DNA from: Puniceicoccales bacterium
GTDB taxonomy: Bacteria > Verrucomicrobiota > Verrucomicrobiia > Opitutales > JAIRLG01
Assembly (NCBI GenBank): GCA_031288595.1
Contig: JAITRB010000007.1
Span: 1 to 32,000, forward strand
Length of the DNA stretch: 32,000 bases
Direction: 5' to 3'
Made by a program: the position numbers and the translations under genes
Notes under the pieces: model-generated
Seen by the model: only the letters and a program-made list of their open reading frames with translations
Told to the model about the DNA's origin: nothing
The model's database searches: none
Part shown: positions 17,049-31,360 of the stretch, piece after piece
Layout of the letters: each line of letters starts with the position of its first letter
Position numbering within the stretch: the first letter of the stretch is position 1

Positions 17049-17525
17049 ATGCCGGAGTTCGGGCGGAGAAGGGTCGAGATCCGCAATGGGTGCCGCGCGC
17101 TGAGCTTCGAAGAGCTTTCCGTTTGGCAGGTCTTTCACATCCTCGACGCCGAGGGGGCATTCTACCTACCGGCCGGCGATCTATCTCTGGCATTTGTCTC
17201 CCTCGCCAAACTGCGCGCCCTACATCATCGCCATCTGGCCGAGGATGTCGCAACGGATGTCCTGAGCTTTCCGGGAAATCCAAACTGGTCCTTCGCGGGG
17301 GAGATCGTCGTCGCTCCGGCTGTCGCCCATCGCCGGTGCCGGCATTACGGCACTTCCTTCCCCGAAGAGCTGAGCCTCTACCTCGTCCACGGCTACCTTC
17401 ACCTCTGCGGCCTGGACGACCTCAGGCCGGGCGATGCTGAAAAGATGCGGCGGGCGGAGGAGGACTGCCTGCAACGGCTGCGGAAACGCGGGGCCCTACC
17501 GGAATTCCTCTGGCGAGGGAAATGA
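17049..17525 (+). CDS. ybeY: rRNA maturation endoribonuclease YbeY (start trimmed from the 16899 ORF, which overlaps rpmG)
   Basis: 158 aa with DVLSFP and the metal-site block LVHGYLHLCGLDD (canonical HGxLHLxGYDH). Confidence 0.85.
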   Translation: MPEFGRRRVEIRNGCRALSFEELSVWQVFHILDAEGAFYLPAGDLSLAFVSLAKLRALHHRHLAEDVATDVLSFPGNPNWSFAGEIVVAPAVAHRRCRHYGTSFPEELSLYLVHGYLHLCGLDDLRPGDAEKMRRAEEDCLQRLRKRGALPEFLWRGK

Positions 17526-17601
17526 GCGGAGACGGTGGGCCAAAGTGGTGCAGGAGAGGTGTTGGATTTGGAACAGGTGCTGGATTGAGGTTCGGGAGAA
17601 G

Positions 17602-17700
17602 CCCGCTGCCTTTGGAGCCCCCTGGGCTCCGGCCCGCGCAGCGGGCCTCAAGGGGTCCCGGGGAAATTCTTTCCCCGGGGCCCCTTGTAAAGGCAGCGGG
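17602..17700 (+). repeat. cloverleaf nested-palindrome element, copy 5
   Basis: Closing stem of 12 bp, CCCGCTGCCTTT (17602-17613) with AAAGGCAGCGGG (17689-17700). Hairpins: GGAGCCC-CCT-GGGCTCC (17614-17630); GGCCCGC-GCA-GCGGGCC (17631-17647); AAGGGGTCCCGGGGAAA-TTC-TTTCCCCGGGGCCCCTT (17650-17686). Confidence 0.85.
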
Positions 17701-17804
17701 AAGGGTTTGCTGGGGCGTTTGGGGTTAGCGCAGCGCTCGACGGAATGGCTGCTGCATCCGGCAGGAGGACTGTCGCATTGGGTGGATTGCCCCGGGGAAG
17801 GGTT

Positions 17805-19817
17805 TTATTCGAGGGCCGACAGAAGGGGTGTAGTGGCATCGAGCTCACCCGATTGTTGCCGCTCTTCGATCTGGCCGTTTTTCAGGGCGATGGAGATGGA
17901 GGTACTCAGGATATGGGGGTGAAAAGCGGCCTCTTGGTCATCCTGGGCACCTGAATGGAGAATGGCGATGAGGGAGAGTTCGGCCCCGAGAAGAGGGTAG
18001 AGCCTCTCCTCGAGCGCCGAGGCATCGATCCCGACGAAGGCGAGAAATTCCGGATCATGGGGGAAGGTGCCGATCTTCGGGTCGCGGGCGTTGAGCCGGC
18101 GGTGGGTCGCGAGACAGTCGCGGAAAGCATCGGCGGTTTTTAGGAAATTTCGGCCCGAAGCGGTTCTGAAAACGCTCCGCTCCAGCTCATCGGCAATCGC
18201 TGCGATGCTCCGGGCCCGTTCCGGATCGATGGGGATTTCTTCCGGTCGTAGGTCACCCTTGGCGAGCCGCAGGGCTTCTTCCCAGTCGAAGGACGGATCC
18301 ATCCAGTTCTGCAGATCCTCGGTCGTAATACGCCTAGGCTCCGAAGCGATCTGGGAGGATATTTGGGTATAGATCAGTATGGGCGATGGGCGTCTTCGGG
18401 ATGAATGTCTATACCTGCGAGGAGGATTTAGGCATTCCTCCGGAACGGAGCGCTTGGCCGGCGACAGATCGAGGCCCTCTAGGGCTTCAAAGCTGGTGCT
18501 CATGGCCAGGCGATGCGCATGGTTGCAGATACCGGCAAAGCCCTGGGGCGTGATCATCTCATAGCGGAAGAAGGGAGAAATAAGGAGGAATTTGATGTAG
18601 TGCCAGTAGAGGCTCTTGTGCGGCTCGTCTTTGGACACCTGGAGGATCTCGTCCTGGGCGTCATTCGACGGCAGGCGTGCCCGTTCCGCCACTCTGTCGA
18701 AGCGCTTCGGATCGAATTGTGCCCGGAGCTTTTTGTAGAACAGCATCCGATAGTGATGGGATACATCCGCCTGGATGGCCCGATGGATGGCATCGGAGAT
18801 GGAGACGATGGCTGGGGTTCCCACGTGGACGTAGCCCTGAAAGGCGGCGAGGGTGACGAGGTCGCGGTGGACGAAGAGGCGTAGGAGATTGCGCTGTCCG
18901 ACGTAGCGCTCGAAGGCCTTTCGGGACTTGCAGCCGGCCAGGACCATGGGTGAGGAGAGGGCGAAACAGAAGAAGCGCGGCGTGCGTTGGTTGTCGAAGT
19001 CGTCCCCGAAGAGCCGCTGTCCGTAGGTATGGATTAGCAGCGGCGTCAATAGGGTCGCGAGACCGGCTCCTTGGCTATGGCCCATACAGACAAAGCGGAT
19101 ACGATCGCGTTCCTCCCGTGGGATATGGAGGATCACGTCCCGAAGATCCCTCTGGAGGTTCCAGAAAAAGTTCTGGATCTTTTGGGCATAGCCCGCGTGC
19201 ACGAAGCCATCGATGCCCATGCTGTCGGCGGTGATGCGCCGTTTGGCAGCGAAAAAATTGTCCATCCAAGTGGGGCCGAAGATGCCGTGGGCGGATTGGA
19301 AGAGTTCGCCCTGAGAGCCGCGGAGAACGATGGCGATCACGTGCAGGCCCTGATTTTGGGTATAGGCGACGAAACCGGGGAAATCGATTTCGGCGGCTGT
19401 GACATCGCCACCCGCGCAGCAGCAGGAGCAACAGTTCAGGAGGCAGTGCAGACAGGATTGATAGCAGCCTTCGGCCCGTATCGCTCCCTGTGTTCCGGCA
19501 AAATTCTGTCGGCACTGCCAGACGTGTTCCCCGATCTCCACCTGGGCCTGCATCATCTCTGCCGGCAGGCGGTAGGTCGTGCGATCGCTGCGCTTCGTCG
19601 CATTGTAGCTGCGCTTGACGAGGTACAGGAAATCGGGAACGAGCTCCTGGAACCACGGGGCGATGCCGAGCGTCGGCTCTTGTGTCATCGGGTCGAGACT
19701 CTCATCGATGACGTGGATCAGGGGCGACGTGTCATCCCACACATAATCCGCCTGAGCCAGTGCTGTCCCTTCTAGGCATAAACAGGCGATGCCTCCGATA
19801 AATCGCAAATTGCCCAT
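17805..19817 (-). CDS. secreted class-3 lipase-like alpha/beta hydrolase with an unknown ~350-aa C-terminal region
   Basis: Start set at ATG 19817, five nt after AAGGAGG; the ORF-track start at 19856 lacks an RBS. Signal-peptide-like MGNLRFIGGIACLCLEGTALAQA. The Lipase_3 pattern reads AIVLRGS ... VHAGY ... RFVCMGHSQGAGLATLL, with the nucleophile Ser in GHSQG. Confidence 0.8.
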   Translation of the reverse strand: MGNLRFIGGIACLCLEGTALAQADYVWDDTSPLIHVIDESLDPMTQEPTLGIAPWFQELVPDFLYLVKRSYNATKRSDRTTYRLPAEMMQAQVEIGEHVWQCRQNFAGTQGAIRAEGCYQSCLHCLLNCCSCCCAGGDVTAAEIDFPGFVAYTQNQGLHVIAIVLRGSQGELFQSAHGIFGPTWMDNFFAAKRRITADSMGIDGFVHAGYAQKIQNFFWNLQRDLRDVILHIPREERDRIRFVCMGHSQGAGLATLLTPLLIHTYGQRLFGDDFDNQRTPRFFCFALSSPMVLAGCKSRKAFERYVGQRNLLRLFVHRDLVTLAAFQGYVHVGTPAIVSISDAIHRAIQADVSHHYRMLFYKKLRAQFDPKRFDRVAERARLPSNDAQDEILQVSKDEPHKSLYWHYIKFLLISPFFRYEMITPQGFAGICNHAHRLAMSTSFEALEGLDLSPAKRSVPEECLNPPRRYRHSSRRRPSPILIYTQISSQIASEPRRITTEDLQNWMDPSFDWEEALRLAKGDLRPEEIPIDPERARSIAAIADELERSVFRTASGRNFLKTADAFRDCLATHRRLNARDPKIGTFPHDPEFLAFVGIDASALEERLYPLLGAELSLIAILHSGAQDDQEAAFHPHILSTSISIALKNGQIEERQQSGELDATTPLLSALE

Positions 19818-19888
19818 ACATCCCTCCTTGAAGCTAGAATAGCTCCGTACTTGCACCTGGCAAATGCGCTAGATGTGTATTCCTTTTC

Positions 19889-19918
19889 ATTATCGTTGGG
19901 TATAAGGAAAATTGCTAA
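19889..19918 (-). promoter_or_regulatory. possible sigma70-type promoter of the lipase-like gene
   Basis: The minus strand reads TTAGCA (19918-19913), 18 nt, GATAAT (19894-19889). It lies in an AT-richer stretch about 70 nt upstream of the ATG. Confidence 0.35.
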
Positions 19919-20095
19919 CTATTCCGCTGCCTGTTTCTGTAAGCTGTAATTCCCTTTATTTCTAGCTCTTCCATCACTTCTTGGGTTACTAGGAATGCCC
20001 TTGGTAAAAGGTCACTGGGAGGCTGTCCTTTCTGAGGAGTAGCGGCGATACGCCCTTGACCCATCGAGAGCACTTCTCTTTGATAGCCTCCAGTA

Positions 20096-20180
20096 GCTCA
20101 GGTGGTGAAATTGGCAGACACGCTGTCTTCAGGCGGCAGTGCCGTGAGGCATAGGGGTTCGAGTCCCCTCCTGAGCACCA
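20096..20180 (+). tRNA. tRNA-Leu (anticodon CAG), type II with long variable arm, CCA encoded
   Basis: GCTCAGGTGGTGAAATTGGCAGACACGCTGTCTTCAGGCGGCAGTGCCGTGAGGCATAGGGGTTCGAGTCCCCTCCTGAGCACCA. Anticodon loop TTCAGGC; variable-arm stem TGCC/GGCA. A TTGACC box lies at 20056-20061 upstream. Confidence 0.9.
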
Positions 20181-20225
20181 GAGAATCCCCAGTCCTAGCG
20201 TTGGGGCAGCGTTTCCTTCTTCCTA

Positions 20226-20328
20226 GCTTCGCCGCCTTGGCGATGGGAGGGAAAGGAAGGTTTTCTTTCCCTCCCATCGCGGCCCGCAAAGCGGGCCTAG
20301 GCCCTACGGGCCCCCAAGGCGGCGAAGC
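20226..20328 (-). repeat. cloverleaf nested-palindrome element, copy 6 (inverted orientation)
   Basis: Closing stem of 15 bp, GCTTCGCCGCCTTGG (20226-20240) with CCAAGGCGGCGAAGC (20314-20328). On the plus strand the order is long hairpin (20241-20279, 18 bp), GGCCCGC-AAA-GCGGGCC (20281-20297), then GGCCC-TAC-GGGCC (20300-20312). The short-short-long order is therefore read on the minus strand. Confidence 0.85.
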
Positions 20329-20754
20329 AGGCATGCATTGCGAGGACTGAGAGGCAGCGGCCAGAAAGCTCAGCTTTACTCTCCTTCACGGACAAAATCT
20401 TTCCCCCGTCTTGCTGGTGGAGCTATAGCTTAGAAGCAAGCTGCGGATACGTGTTCACTGTCTGGTTTATTTTTCTCCGGTGCGGCGCGATCAGGACGGC
20501 GAGGGATAGAGGACCTAGGGCTTTGCTCTTTTCTCGCCGTGTCCTGACGAGGGCAGGGCGCCGCTAGGACCCGATGGATAGATTTGCATCCTCGCGAAGG
20601 AGAAAATTGGGCGGGGCCCAGGCTGAATGTAGTCTTCCGGAGAAAAAAGCCCTTATATCACTAGGATTGAAAGGACTGAAGATGTTTTTTTTTGACTTAT
20701 CGAAGGGATTTCGTTACTCCTCGGGGCTATTGGTTGGCAACTAAGAGGATTTTC

Positions 20755-28938: not shown

Positions 28939-29418
28939 ATGCTCCCCAATGGACTAAAGATGGCGATGGATTGGGAAAGTGGAGTGGCAAAGCTGAATGG
29001 TATGCTCAGCGCCATGGGGAGGGAATTAGATTTGTCGGACCTGAAGCTGGACGAGAAGGGCAACTGCCCGCTGTCCTTCGGCGATGCCTTTATGTTGCGC
29101 TGTTCCCTGGATTCGACAGGGGAGCATGTGACGTTCTACGCCTGTGTCGGCTCGCTTCCGGCTGAGGCTGAGGCCTTTTGGGAGCGCCTCCTGGTGGCGA
29201 ATTACTTCTGGAAGGAAAGTGCCGGTTCTCGGGTGGGACTGGATCCAGAAGCAGGCAACAGCGTGACGCTCACCCAATCTATACCGATGGAATTTCTCGA
29301 CGACGAGCTCTTCTACAAGCATGTGGAGCGCTTCGTCAATGCGATGGATTACTGGGAAAAACGCCTGGCGGCTTTGCAGGAGACGAAGGACAGGGCAGCC
29401 TTTTTAAAACTACCCTAG
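28939..29418 (+). CDS. small acidic protein resembling CesT/Tir-family type III secretion chaperones (YbjN-like fold)
   Basis: AGGAGG sits 8 nt upstream of the ATG. 159 aa. The pattern LNGMLSAMGRELDLSDLKLDEKGNCPLSFGDAFMLRCSLDSTGEHVTFYACVGSLP...FWERLLVANYFWKESAGSRVGLDPEAGNSVTLTQSIP matches the class I chaperone layout as I remember it. No HMM was run. Confidence 0.55.
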   Translation: MLPNGLKMAMDWESGVAKLNGMLSAMGRELDLSDLKLDEKGNCPLSFGDAFMLRCSLDSTGEHVTFYACVGSLPAEAEAFWERLLVANYFWKESAGSRVGLDPEAGNSVTLTQSIPMEFLDDELFYKHVERFVNAMDYWEKRLAALQETKDRAAFLKLP

Positions 29419-29434
29419 CTCCAGGAGAGCAGCT

Positions 29435-30049
29435 ATGTTCCTCACGGGGCTCGAGAAAGCATTGCCGGTGGAGACGGAGCGCCTGCGCCTGCGGCCGCTA
29501 GTGGAGGATGATGAGGTAGAAATAGCCCGTTACCTCAATGATCTCGAAGTGGCGAAGGGGCTGACCTATTCGCCTTATCCCTATACCCTGGAGATGGCTG
29601 CCCAATGGCTTCAGGAGGTGGCCTTTGCGTCGCAGCGGGACCAGGTGCGCTACTGGGCCATCACGCCACGTGAAGGAGGAAACTTCCTGGGCATTCTCGG
29701 TTTCTCCCTCTGTCGAACGCACGACAAGGCGGAAATGCACTACTGGTTGGGCCGGCCCTTTTGGAATCGTGGCTATACTACCGAAGCGGCCCTGGCTATG
29801 ATCCCCTTCATCTTCACCCAAGAAGCGACCTTGCAGCGTCTGGAGATCAACTATCGTACCTGCAACTCCGCCTCGGGTCGCGTGATCGAGAAATGCGGCT
29901 TCGTCTTCGAGGGCGAGCTGCGCGCCTATGTCAAGCGCTTTGGTCACTACGATGACGTCCGCTTCTACAGTCTCCTGCGCCGCGAAGTGATGAAAGAAGA
30001 CTTGCGTTTGAGGAGAGAAGTCAGTCACAGCGAAAATCGACAGGCCTAA
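29435..30049 (+). CDS. GNAT-family N-acetyltransferase (RimJ/RimL-like, Acetyltransf_3 type)
   Basis: TERLRLRPL start, WAI...FLGILGF, PFWNRGYTTEAALAMIPFIF (acetyl-CoA loop) and NSASGRVIEKCGFVFEGELR. AGGAG lies 7 nt upstream, 16 nt after the preceding stop. Confidence 0.85.
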   Translation: MFLTGLEKALPVETERLRLRPLVEDDEVEIARYLNDLEVAKGLTYSPYPYTLEMAAQWLQEVAFASQRDQVRYWAITPREGGNFLGILGFSLCRTHDKAEMHYWLGRPFWNRGYTTEAALAMIPFIFTQEATLQRLEINYRTCNSASGRVIEKCGFVFEGELRAYVKRFGHYDDVRFYSLLRREVMKEDLRLRREVSHSENRQA

Positions 30050-31034
30050 ATCCCGATGGCGGTTCTCCTCATGAGCTCCCTTGAGATTGCAAACATGAAG
30101 AATTTAGATGGGATGAATTTTCATCGGAGGAGATCGATTGATGAGCGGAAAAAGGATCCTCCGATAAAGGGAAAGCCGTGGATTTTCGCTCTTGAAGAAT
30201 AGGCGCTACAGGACTATCGCGAAAATAGATATGGCTTCGATAAGCCTACCGGCGAAGGAGACGAAGAAAGAACCTAGGGACCGTCTTTTCTCAGTTTTGC
30301 GGTCAATCCTATTTTCGGCCCTCCACAGGTGGATCGCCTCCCCATCATGCTGGGTGTAGTGGCTTCGAGGACGTTCCCAGTGGGTGACTGCTTAAATCCG
30401 CTGAGAATAGGACGATTTCCCAAAAATAAGGACCACAGGGTATAGGCCTTTCATAGGGAGGAGTTTTTTTTCTTCCGGAGTACTGACAGAAGAAGGACAT
30501 AACGATCCGTCCGCAGGCGGCCTTCTCCTTTACCCACATCACGCGGTTTGCGCCGATGGCGAGGCTCTATCACGCAGCGCGTCCGCTCTGCCGCAAAAGG
30601 GTGCCTTGGATCGATGAGGAAAAGGACATCCCGAATGCTCGGGACTATGAGTAGCCTCGACGATATTCAGAGACTTTTATTGACCTAATAGGAATCCGCA
30701 ATGGTGGATCTCAGCTTCATCGCCGCTTCCATCGAAGCGGAAGTGACCGGTGAGTAGAAAACGTGTTGGGGAAGCGACCCAAGCGATCCTCGCGTCGCTA
30801 TGGTCGGCCTAGCTTCCGCTCGATTGCCTGCCTACATGGCTGCCAATCCCTTCGGCGGAAATAAGAGGCGGGGCGGACGGGTCTTAATGTCCATCTCCGC
30901 TTTGGGAGACTAGGAATGCATGATCTGGGCGTCTATTTCCTCCTCCACGGCAGCAGCCTGCAAGACGTTGGCACTCGATCTGGGCTCTGTCCATATAGGC
31001 GATGATCTCACGAATTATACCCATACATCCCCCT

Positions 31035-31319
31035 ATGCCTGATCTTGAACCGAATCACGATCGGCCAGTGCTGCCAGACGGCGATTCCCCTAAGCACTTC
31101 AATCTCTACGGCGAGCGCCTCGATGCCGGTCCGATGGAAAATTGGGAACAAACGCTTGACGGAAGAAGCGCGGAGCAGTTGGCAAAATTGGGAAAAATTT
31201 TGGCTAAGACTGTGTTGGAGGATGAGGCCGACAGCGTTTTTCTGAAAAAAGTAGGTTTCCCTAGAAACGGGAAAATGTGGAGGAGCGAGCAGGACGAACG
31301 GATCATTGCAGCTACTTGA
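31035..31319 (+). CDS. hypothetical small protein (doubtful)
   Basis: 94-aa ORF from MPDLE with protein-like soluble composition (LAKLGKILAKTVLEDEADSVFLKKVG, WRSEQDERI). It has no Shine-Dalgarno and no recognisable family, and a competing antisense ORF overlaps it. Confidence 0.3.
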   Translation: MPDLEPNHDRPVLPDGDSPKHFNLYGERLDAGPMENWEQTLDGRSAEQLAKLGKILAKTVLEDEADSVFLKKVGFPRNGKMWRSEQDERIIAAT

Positions 31320-31360
31320 GCCGCAGGCAGCGGAGGCAATTCTTGGGAGAATTGGGGTCC

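Follow-up and report, generated by a model that had tools for sequence, protein, structure and literature searches.

What is a nested palindrome doing between the converging 3' ends of two genes, and on behalf of which of them, if either, would it act? The window, the 32,000-nt stretch of Puniceicoccales DNA analysed here, carries the gene for the endoribonuclease YbeY (ybeY) at 16899-17525 on the + strand (PF02130, E = 5.9e-23) and a lipase-like gene with a class 3 lipase domain (PF01764) at 17805-19856 on the - strand. The element between them, W4 (17602-17700), is separated from the ybeY stop by 76 nt and from the lipase stop by 104 nt, distances that agree with the initial annotation of this DNA, and so stands at the 3' end of both transcription units.

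Anatomy and stability of W4

W4, to which no strand was assigned, is a nested palindrome, and either of its strands folds into a closed four-way junction, as had been proposed for this interval; a covariance model scored it at 105.6 bits (+ strand). A 12-bp outer stem (17602-17613 paired with 17689-17700; 5' arm CCCGCTGCCTTT, 3' arm AAAGGCAGCGGG) encloses three hairpins. Hairpin A (17614-17630) pairs 17614-17620 with 17624-17630 over 7 bp, GGAGCCC-CCT-GGGCTCC with loop CCT, and hairpin B (17631-17647) pairs 17631-17637 with 17641-17647, also over 7 bp, GGCCCGC-GCA-GCGGGCC with loop GCA. The long hairpin L (17649-17687) has 18 bp, and its arms CAAGGGGTCCCGGGGAAA (17649-17666) and TTTCCCCGGGGCCCCTTG (17670-17687) are separated by the loop TTC. 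Along the + strand the order is CCCGCTGCCTTT, A, B, T, CAAGGGGTCCCGGGGAAA-TTC-TTTCCCCGGGGCCCCTTG, T and AAAGGCAGCGGG, a total of 44 bp with one G.U pair (+ strand) and 3 nt in each of the three hairpin loops. The linkers, described earlier as 0, 2 and 2 nt, are 0, 0, 1 and 1 nt in the minimum free energy (MFE) fold. At 99 nt, W4 is the most compact of the window copies (99, 100, 101, 103, 103 and 117 nt), as the initial annotation had stated.

Folding as RNA gave an MFE of -87.7 kcal/mol (z = -9.44) for the + strand and of -83.6 kcal/mol (z = -9.67) for the - strand, and the fold was matched by 0 of 200 shuffles on either strand. Folding with DNA parameters returned the same structure at -53.1 and -51.5 kcal/mol. 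An identical local-fold scan found five W4-like junctions in the window and none in each of four dinucleotide shuffles, which excludes a chance origin for structures of this type. The W4 structure is real, non-random and evolutionarily maintained. The claim that it folds equivalently on both transcripts was correct as to the strong fold on the two strands; it did not hold as to detail, where the order of the arms is mirrored and the G.U pair of the + strand becomes a C.A mismatch on the - strand. A transcript from ybeY would meet the arms as A-B-L, and one from the lipase gene as L-B-A.

W4 is followed by AAGGGTTTGCTGG on the + strand and by CTTCTCCCGAACC on the - strand. There is no U-tract on either side, as had been observed, and the terminator-site scan lists nothing at 17602-17700. 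Neither strand of W4 has the GC-rich hairpin followed by a 7-9 nt U-tract of a canonical intrinsic terminator, nor does W4 have the upstream A-tract and downstream U-tract round a symmetric hairpin that mark a bidirectional one. Its short runs, a TTT that ends the 5' outer arm and an AAA that opens the 3' outer arm, are the reverse of the terminator arrangement, and both are base-paired. Hairpin-plus-T-run sites in the window as a whole were not clearly enriched (18 versus 15.7 expected in the first half, 28 versus 16.2 in the second). According to one study (PMC3993855), hairpins without a U-tract did not terminate, and mycobacterial RNA polymerase, the one lineage tested there, required the U-tract. 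The missing U-tract counts against true termination at W4.

Copies of the family and covariation at the W4 site

The local-folding scan gave five copies in the window, and a covariance model built from four copies found a sixth (W6). By order of starts (4126, 6599, 10195, 13003, 17602 and 20227) W4 is the fifth, which is the rank it had been given. W1 (4126-4228), with outer stem GCGCGATGGCC, belongs to a subfamily distinct from that of W4, as does its paralog W3 (10195-10297), 185 nt after the ftsK stop; both escape the covariance model. W2 (6599-6715, 77.2 bits) has a 23-bp outer stem; on one side of it is the murC stop and on the other a promoter-like motif that precedes atpA. W6 (13003-13102; 60.7 bits, E = 3.8e-9; z = -8.9 and -11.2) is a lower-GC member in the interval between the ftsK start and tRNA-Val, and W5 (20227-20327; 102.3 bits, - strand), in the opposite orientation to the other copies, lies 47 nt after tRNA-Leu and upstream of atpB.

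All six are built alike, with 11-23 bp in the outer stem, two short hairpins (A and B), a long hairpin L, loops of 3-4 nt and linkers of 0-3 nt; in the family at large the unit is ~80-117 nt long. Several copies also have in common the B hairpin GCCCGC-N3-GCGGGC and a junction-proximal outer stem GCCTT(T/G)(G). No flank or upstream promoter-like sequence is common to the copies. All copies are extragenic and lie between transcription units, W2, for example, just upstream of the motif that precedes atpA. Two lie between diverging genes and away from 3' ends: W6 and a copy in L003 (L003a, L003 164-264; L numbers denote contigs of relatives).

W1 and W3 each form the 3' end of a 200-nt repeat unit (4029-4228 and 10100-10297, 81% identity) that consists of a ~97-nt non-coding leader and the cloverleaf, and that are similar precisely up to the end of the outer stem. 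At its end, L133 carries a related leader with outer arm GGGAAATTTTTTCTTTGCGCGACGGCC, which faces the opposite way with respect to atpA. The unit could be composite, or a gene for a small RNA with the cloverleaf as its 3' end. The promoter-like motif, GCRCACTTGCY...TTTAGA(T/A), is common to four genomes (window 6560-6598 on the - strand, immediately adjoined by W2; L133 ~395-435; L132 ~2880-2920; L131 ~4285-4320), and atpA probably starts at 6533 (MNRNIVEE...) rather than at the first ATG at 6563.

Orthologs of W4 occupy the same lipase/ybeY site in L001, where the element is complete, and in L003 and L004, where it is cut by contig ends; the outer-arm sequence is kept in all three. The L001 ortholog agrees with W4 in its outer arm (CCGCTGCCTTT) and in hairpins A and B. 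Hairpin A is found at L001 4288-4383 and 8983-9089 in the form GAGCCC/GGGCTC. The long arm has changed from CAAGGGGCCCCGGGGAAAG in W4 to CAAGCTGCCCCATGAAAG in L001, each change being matched on the opposite arm. Against L001, the most distant ortholog, the element is 71% identical, whereas the flanks are 47-50% identical, which is the level of random 100-mers (48%), and the last 300 nt of the ybeY and lipase genes are 52-60% identical. Tandem repeats suspected between the L001 lipase stop and the element were not confirmed by Tandem Repeats Finder (TRF).

In the four-sequence alignment, 16 of the 44 pairs had changed on both sides and 94.7% of cells were paired, versus 80.6% after shuffling and 42-56% when the partners were slid. 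Eleven copies fitted to the covariance model, one row being the reverse read of W5, gave both-side changes in 37 of 44 pairs with 96.9% of cells paired. Hairpin L accounted for many of these changes (12 of its 18 pairs in the four sequences, 18 of 18 in the eleven), its sequence being free to vary while the pairing is kept. Hairpin B is the most sequence-conserved part of the family and nearly invariant (4 of the 7 pairs of helix 3 are invariant in the eleven copies). Conservation at the site together with compensatory change argues that the structure of W4 matters, and the alignments suggest that base pairing there is kept by selection; alternatively, arm-to-arm repair in extruded hairpins could maintain the perfect stems with no selection at work. 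G.U pairs made up ~2% of paired cells in the eleven copies, and their strand asymmetry, taken as a test of RNA sense, was not significant (10 versus 5). G.U pairs that are rare and strand-neutral are better explained by a constraint that acts on the palindrome as DNA, or on both strands, than by one on a single-strand RNA. A ribozyme or riboswitch reading was rejected, as the stems are free of internal loops and none of the unpaired nucleotides is conserved.

Distribution and turnover

Further copies were found in L001/L006, L003, L132, L133 and L135, with three in L006 and two in tandem in L135. The element-bearing relatives are Pcl387_bin38 and similar high-GC contigs (L003, L004, L133), Pcl387_bin136 (L001/L006, GC 46%), L132 and L135 (GCA_031255915.1). 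The family was absent from the 16-22 kb searched in each of L131 (73% AtpA identity), L007 and L009. Among 5.8 billion proteins, only eight are relatives of the lipase-like protein, and those with a name are metagenome-assembled genomes (MAGs) of Puniceicoccales (Verrucomicrobiota); a scan of a genome collection with this protein returned only two MAGs, both already among those relatives. Relatives of the family are confined to a narrow clade of Puniceicoccales metagenome genomes.

Rfam 15 in gathering mode matched only tRNAs in the window, and in E-value mode 17500-17810 gave only sub-threshold generic hairpins, the best being HIV_FS2 at 32.7 bits against a threshold of 44. The tRNA models (ARAGORN and Rfam RF00005) recognised three genuine tRNAs in the window and none of the cloverleaves. 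Plasmid and phage collections held no match to the W4 family. A metagenome-wide pattern for the two small hairpins (GCCCGY-N3-RCGGGC-N0-5-RGCCC-N3-GGGCY) matched at least 120 loci in unrelated high-GC genomes; none of the matches listed folds as a compact junction, and the covariance model had no match in the first 90 of the loci listed. W4 apparently belongs to a lineage-specific, undescribed family of four-armed palindromic intergenic repeats.

Several comparisons pointed to movement within the clade. The copy between murC and atpA in L132 and the copy after lpxK in L001 (L001b) have the outer stem, A, B and much of L in common despite their different loci. W2, which is orthologous to the L133 copy, differs in subtype from the L132 copy in the same murC-atpA spacer and stands at a different distance from the shared motif upstream of atpA; both this spacer and the one downstream of ftsK are occupied by different subfamilies in different genomes. 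W5 and its L003 ortholog lie on opposite sides of the tRNA-Leu block. There, the cloverleaf and the block formed by the tRNA-Leu 5' end and its upstream sequence occur in swapped order in the window (20026-20330) and L003 (1-266), two genomes with lipase proteins that are ~80% identical. No clear target-site duplication was seen on comparing filled and empty tRNA-Leu sites, the flanks of which are highly diverged. The near-identical copies elsewhere, the relocation round tRNA-Leu and the absence from sister lineages together indicate that the family behaves as a dispersed, partly mobile REP- or MITE-like repeat. Its absence from L131, L007 and L009 also implies that any host role is recent and dispensable.

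No parent insertion sequence (IS), RAYT or other mobilising transposase was found in the ~130 kb read from the clade. An IS200-like Y1 transposase gene (L001 1332-1643, - strand; PF01797, E = 1e-26) lies in an AT-rich insert upstream of the lipase gene; it was rejected as the mobilising enzyme, being AT-rich and having small hairpins of its own that are unrelated to the cloverleaf.

A number of other features of these genomes were recorded. Just upstream of its element, L003 carries part of the outer arm a second time, in degenerate form (GCTTCGTCGCCTCGAGG). The tandem cloverleaves of L135 (9427-9528 and 9571-9649) lie between lpxK and ftsK, and the second, a miniature of 79 nt and 48% GC whose long arm has 9 bp and whose hairpin sequences are unrelated, still keeps the CTTTG/CAAAG junction. 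Contigs of three high-GC relatives end inside a cloverleaf (L003 2525-2603, L004 2185-2218, L133 2095-2158), and the cloverleaves appear to break short-read assemblies, by repeat collapse or by poor coverage across strong hairpins. W1 occupies a place where relatives encode dxs: the 1.4 kb between glycogen phosphorylase and xseB (window 3033-4461) has no credible open reading frame (ORF), and L131 has dxs there (L131 6218-8077), which points to gene loss, as would suit a reduced or host-associated lifestyle.

The clade conserves a gene pair that is odd for Verrucomicrobia, a CesT-family gene (type III secretion chaperone-like) with one for a GNAT acetyltransferase directly after it (window 28939-30049; L007 14695-15775; L009 14305-15393). 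The pair is followed in the window by a gene-poor ~1.3 kb (30050-31360), inside which an identical 1.7-kb Logan contig (L134) ends, at about window 30606. Arrays of SocA_Panacea (PF13274) genes, each with a small ORF, adjoin lipase or ybeY in some relatives (L010 3740-5172; L135 1806-4926) and are absent from the window.

Orientation, proposed role and likeness to known systems

In same-direction gene contexts, eight of nine copies face one way relative to transcription, although the cases are not all independent (two-sided binomial, about 0.04). The transcript meets L-B-A in W1, W2, W3, W5, L001b, L132 and both L135 copies, and A-B-L only in one copy of L006 (L006c). W5 flips with the gene strand while the GC skew keeps its positive sign across the whole window, and the polarity thus follows transcription and not replication. 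On the prevalence of L-B-A, W4 is oriented for the lipase transcript, and it is probably the lipase gene's element and not a symmetric bidirectional device. The initial annotation had proposed a bidirectional 3'-end structure; with its place between converging 3' ends, its two-strand fold, its lack of a U-tract and its conservation with compensatory changes, W4 may fit this, but the proposal was too symmetric given the polarity of the family. As a separate observation, window positions 1-20000 have a positive GC skew, yet nearly all genes there are on the - strand; if the skew reflects replication, ftsK, murC, atpA, lpxK and others are transcribed head-on to the fork.

W4 would be one vertically inherited copy of a lineage-specific nested-palindrome family that has presumably dispersed among the intergenic sites of one small clade of Puniceicoccales, in the fashion of REP elements or MITEs. 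It would most likely work at the level of the transcript, as RNA. At the end of the lipase mRNA, and from the other side at the end of the ybeY mRNA, it could form an extremely stable knot with hardly any unpaired bases. Such a knot would set the limit of the transcription unit as a block to 3'-to-5' exonucleases, as an obstacle to read-through into the converging gene, or as both. We infer that W4 stabilises or ends transcripts and that the lipase gene is its main client. Our tentative reading, to which we give slightly less than an even chance, is that W4 is a structurally selected, REP-like module that acts as a transcript-boundary or 3'-protecting structure. The fold z-scores, orthology, covariation, inter-unit positions, orientation and the lack of enrichment of T-run hairpins were counted for a transcript-boundary role; the absence of a U-tract, the scarcity of G.U pairs, the two copies between diverging genes (W6 and L003a), the family-free sister lineages and the small orientation count were counted against it.

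W4 could instead be purely selfish mobile DNA. The cloverleaf would then be the recognition structure of a non-autonomous REP/REPIN- or MITE-like element, copied by an enzyme encoded elsewhere (e.g. an HUH or tyrosine transposase acting on folded single-stranded DNA), and the intergenic sites would be tolerated insertions. We regard this as doubtful. A dispersed multi-copy family (6 in 32 kb, 3 in L006, 2 in tandem in L135), near-identical copies at different loci (L132 and L001b; W1 and W3, 81% over 200 nt), the swapped order of element and tRNA-Leu block in two genomes, spacers that hold different subfamilies in different genomes, the absence from L131, L007 and L009, the contigs that break inside elements and a palindrome equally good on both strands are all consistent with it. 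Unlike a decaying passenger, however, W4 has stayed fixed at one site across ~37% protein divergence, with its pairing repaired by double changes. The missing target-site duplication and parent transposase (the sole nearby Y1 transposase, at L001 1332-1643, being an AT-rich IS200 with unrelated hairpins) and an orientation bias that tracks transcription also argue against it.

Factor-independent bidirectional termination, in which RNA polymerase would release at the junction on both strands with no need of a U-tract, is the strong form of the bidirectional 3'-end idea, and it seems decidedly unlikely. The convergent 3'-end position, the extreme stability on both strands and the lack of clear enrichment of hairpin-plus-T-run sites would suit it, but T and A runs lie the wrong way round (TTT before the inner hairpins, AAA after), there is no U-tract, which mycobacterial RNA polymerase was shown to require (PMC3993855), the element-free relative L131 has no substitute hairpin in the same spacer, the family is polar, and some copies lie away from 3' ends. 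We find it improbable that W4 serves the host at the DNA level, either by extruding a branched cruciform or, in duplex form, as the binding site of a dimeric protein (candidates being a recombinase, a nucleoid protein or, as in BIMEs, gyrase), and so organises supercoiling or domain boundaries between converging units. Pairing equally strict on both strands with few G.U pairs, loops all at the 3-4 nt minimum, the highly significant folding with DNA parameters and a conserved B arm (GCCCGC-N3-GCGGGC) that could resemble a dimer binding site point that way; no protein emerged as a candidate, the long arm offers no conserved sequence that could be read, and orientation correlates with the direction of transcription. 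That W4 is a small RNA gene with its own transcription, or an RNA akin to a tRNA or a retron, is very improbable. Such an identity would account for the cloverleaf topology, for an order of outer stem, short hairpins and long hairpin that recalls retron msr-msd RNA, and for the ~97-nt leader of W1 and W3 that ends exactly at the cloverleaf. Against this, ARAGORN and Rfam found nothing at W4, the adjacent genes include no reverse transcriptase, unpaired nucleotides are not conserved, with loop sequences varying freely, and the copies have no common upstream promoter-like flank.

Returning to the transcript-boundary reading, it may extend to the whole family, although we think this unlikely: the cloverleaves would form a new class in Verrucomicrobiota, four-way junctions that bound transcripts with no need of a U-tract (as terminators, insulators or exonuclease stops) and have their pairing under purifying selection and a polarity set relative to transcription. 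They would in effect be a mobile punctuation that propagates itself and on which the host has come to depend. The family is unusual in forming a closed four-way junction instead of a hairpin, in the dozens of compensatory changes that preserve pairing while sequence drifts, and in its transcription-linked polarity. To our knowledge, structured intergenic repeats have been studied well in a few proteobacteria and firmicutes and hardly in the PVC superphylum. Were transcripts indeed ended or protected without a U-tract, the rules for annotating transcription units in uncultured phyla would be broader, and a compact, very stable RNA or DNA module would be at hand for engineering. On the practical side, the cloverleaves seem to break short-read assemblies of these genomes.

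Among known repeats, REP elements protect upstream mRNA from 3' exonucleases and bind gyrase and IHF. The cloverleaves resemble REP, BIME and REPIN repeats (PMC2817692, PMC3116915) in being extragenic, GC-rich, palindromic and multi-copy, in lying mostly between transcription units and in persisting at orthologous sites. REPs are single imperfect hairpins, 20-40 nt long, and REPINs are doublets, whereas a cloverleaf has 80-117 nt and three near-perfect hairpins inside an outer stem; the family thus consists of extragenic, dispersed, multi-copy palindromes but not of single short hairpin units. No RAYT gene or conserved GTAG-like head was seen in the ~130 kb of the clade, and the hosts are proteobacteria for REP and Verrucomicrobiota for the cloverleaf.

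Bacterial MITEs (Correia/NEMIS, ERIC, BOX, RUP; PMC2229807, PMC3184786, PMC3049150) are likewise non-coding, ~100-150 nt long, dispersed, variably present between relatives and co-transcribed with their neighbours, and can affect mRNA fate. They are bounded by terminal inverted repeats, which the outer stem of the cloverleaf formally is, its arms being perfect inverted repeats of 11-23 bp across the family. MITEs usually have one long imperfect hairpin, target-site duplications and an identifiable parent IS, none of which was found for the cloverleaf family in the sequence read. We know of no description, for MITEs, of orthologous compensatory evolution of an inner three-hairpin junction.

With intrinsic and bidirectional terminators the cloverleaves share a GC-rich hairpin at gene 3' ends and a palindrome usable from both strands between converging genes; they differ in having neither a U-tract nor an A-tract/U-tract pair, in being multi-branched, and in that some copies are not at 3' ends. 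Plant mitochondrial t-elements (PMC1920247) are intergenic cloverleaf-shaped structures that define mRNA 5' and 3' ends, and they indicate that a cloverleaf can act as transcript punctuation. The t-elements are tRNA-like and cut by RNase P and RNase Z, whereas the cloverleaf has dimensions unlike those of a tRNA (12-23 bp outer stem, 18-bp arm, triloops). Retron msr-msd RNA also has an outer stem, formed from flanking inverted repeats, round short hairpins and then one long hairpin. In contrast to a retron, the cloverleaf has six copies in 32 kb, perfect palindromic stems, a short-short-long order that is antisense to the surrounding genes in most copies, and no adjacent reverse transcriptase gene: no such domain was detected among the window ORFs scanned against Pfam, the neighbours of W4 being ybeY and the lipase-like gene. 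The W4 family is best described as a new four-way-junction form of REP/MITE-type structured intergenic repeat.
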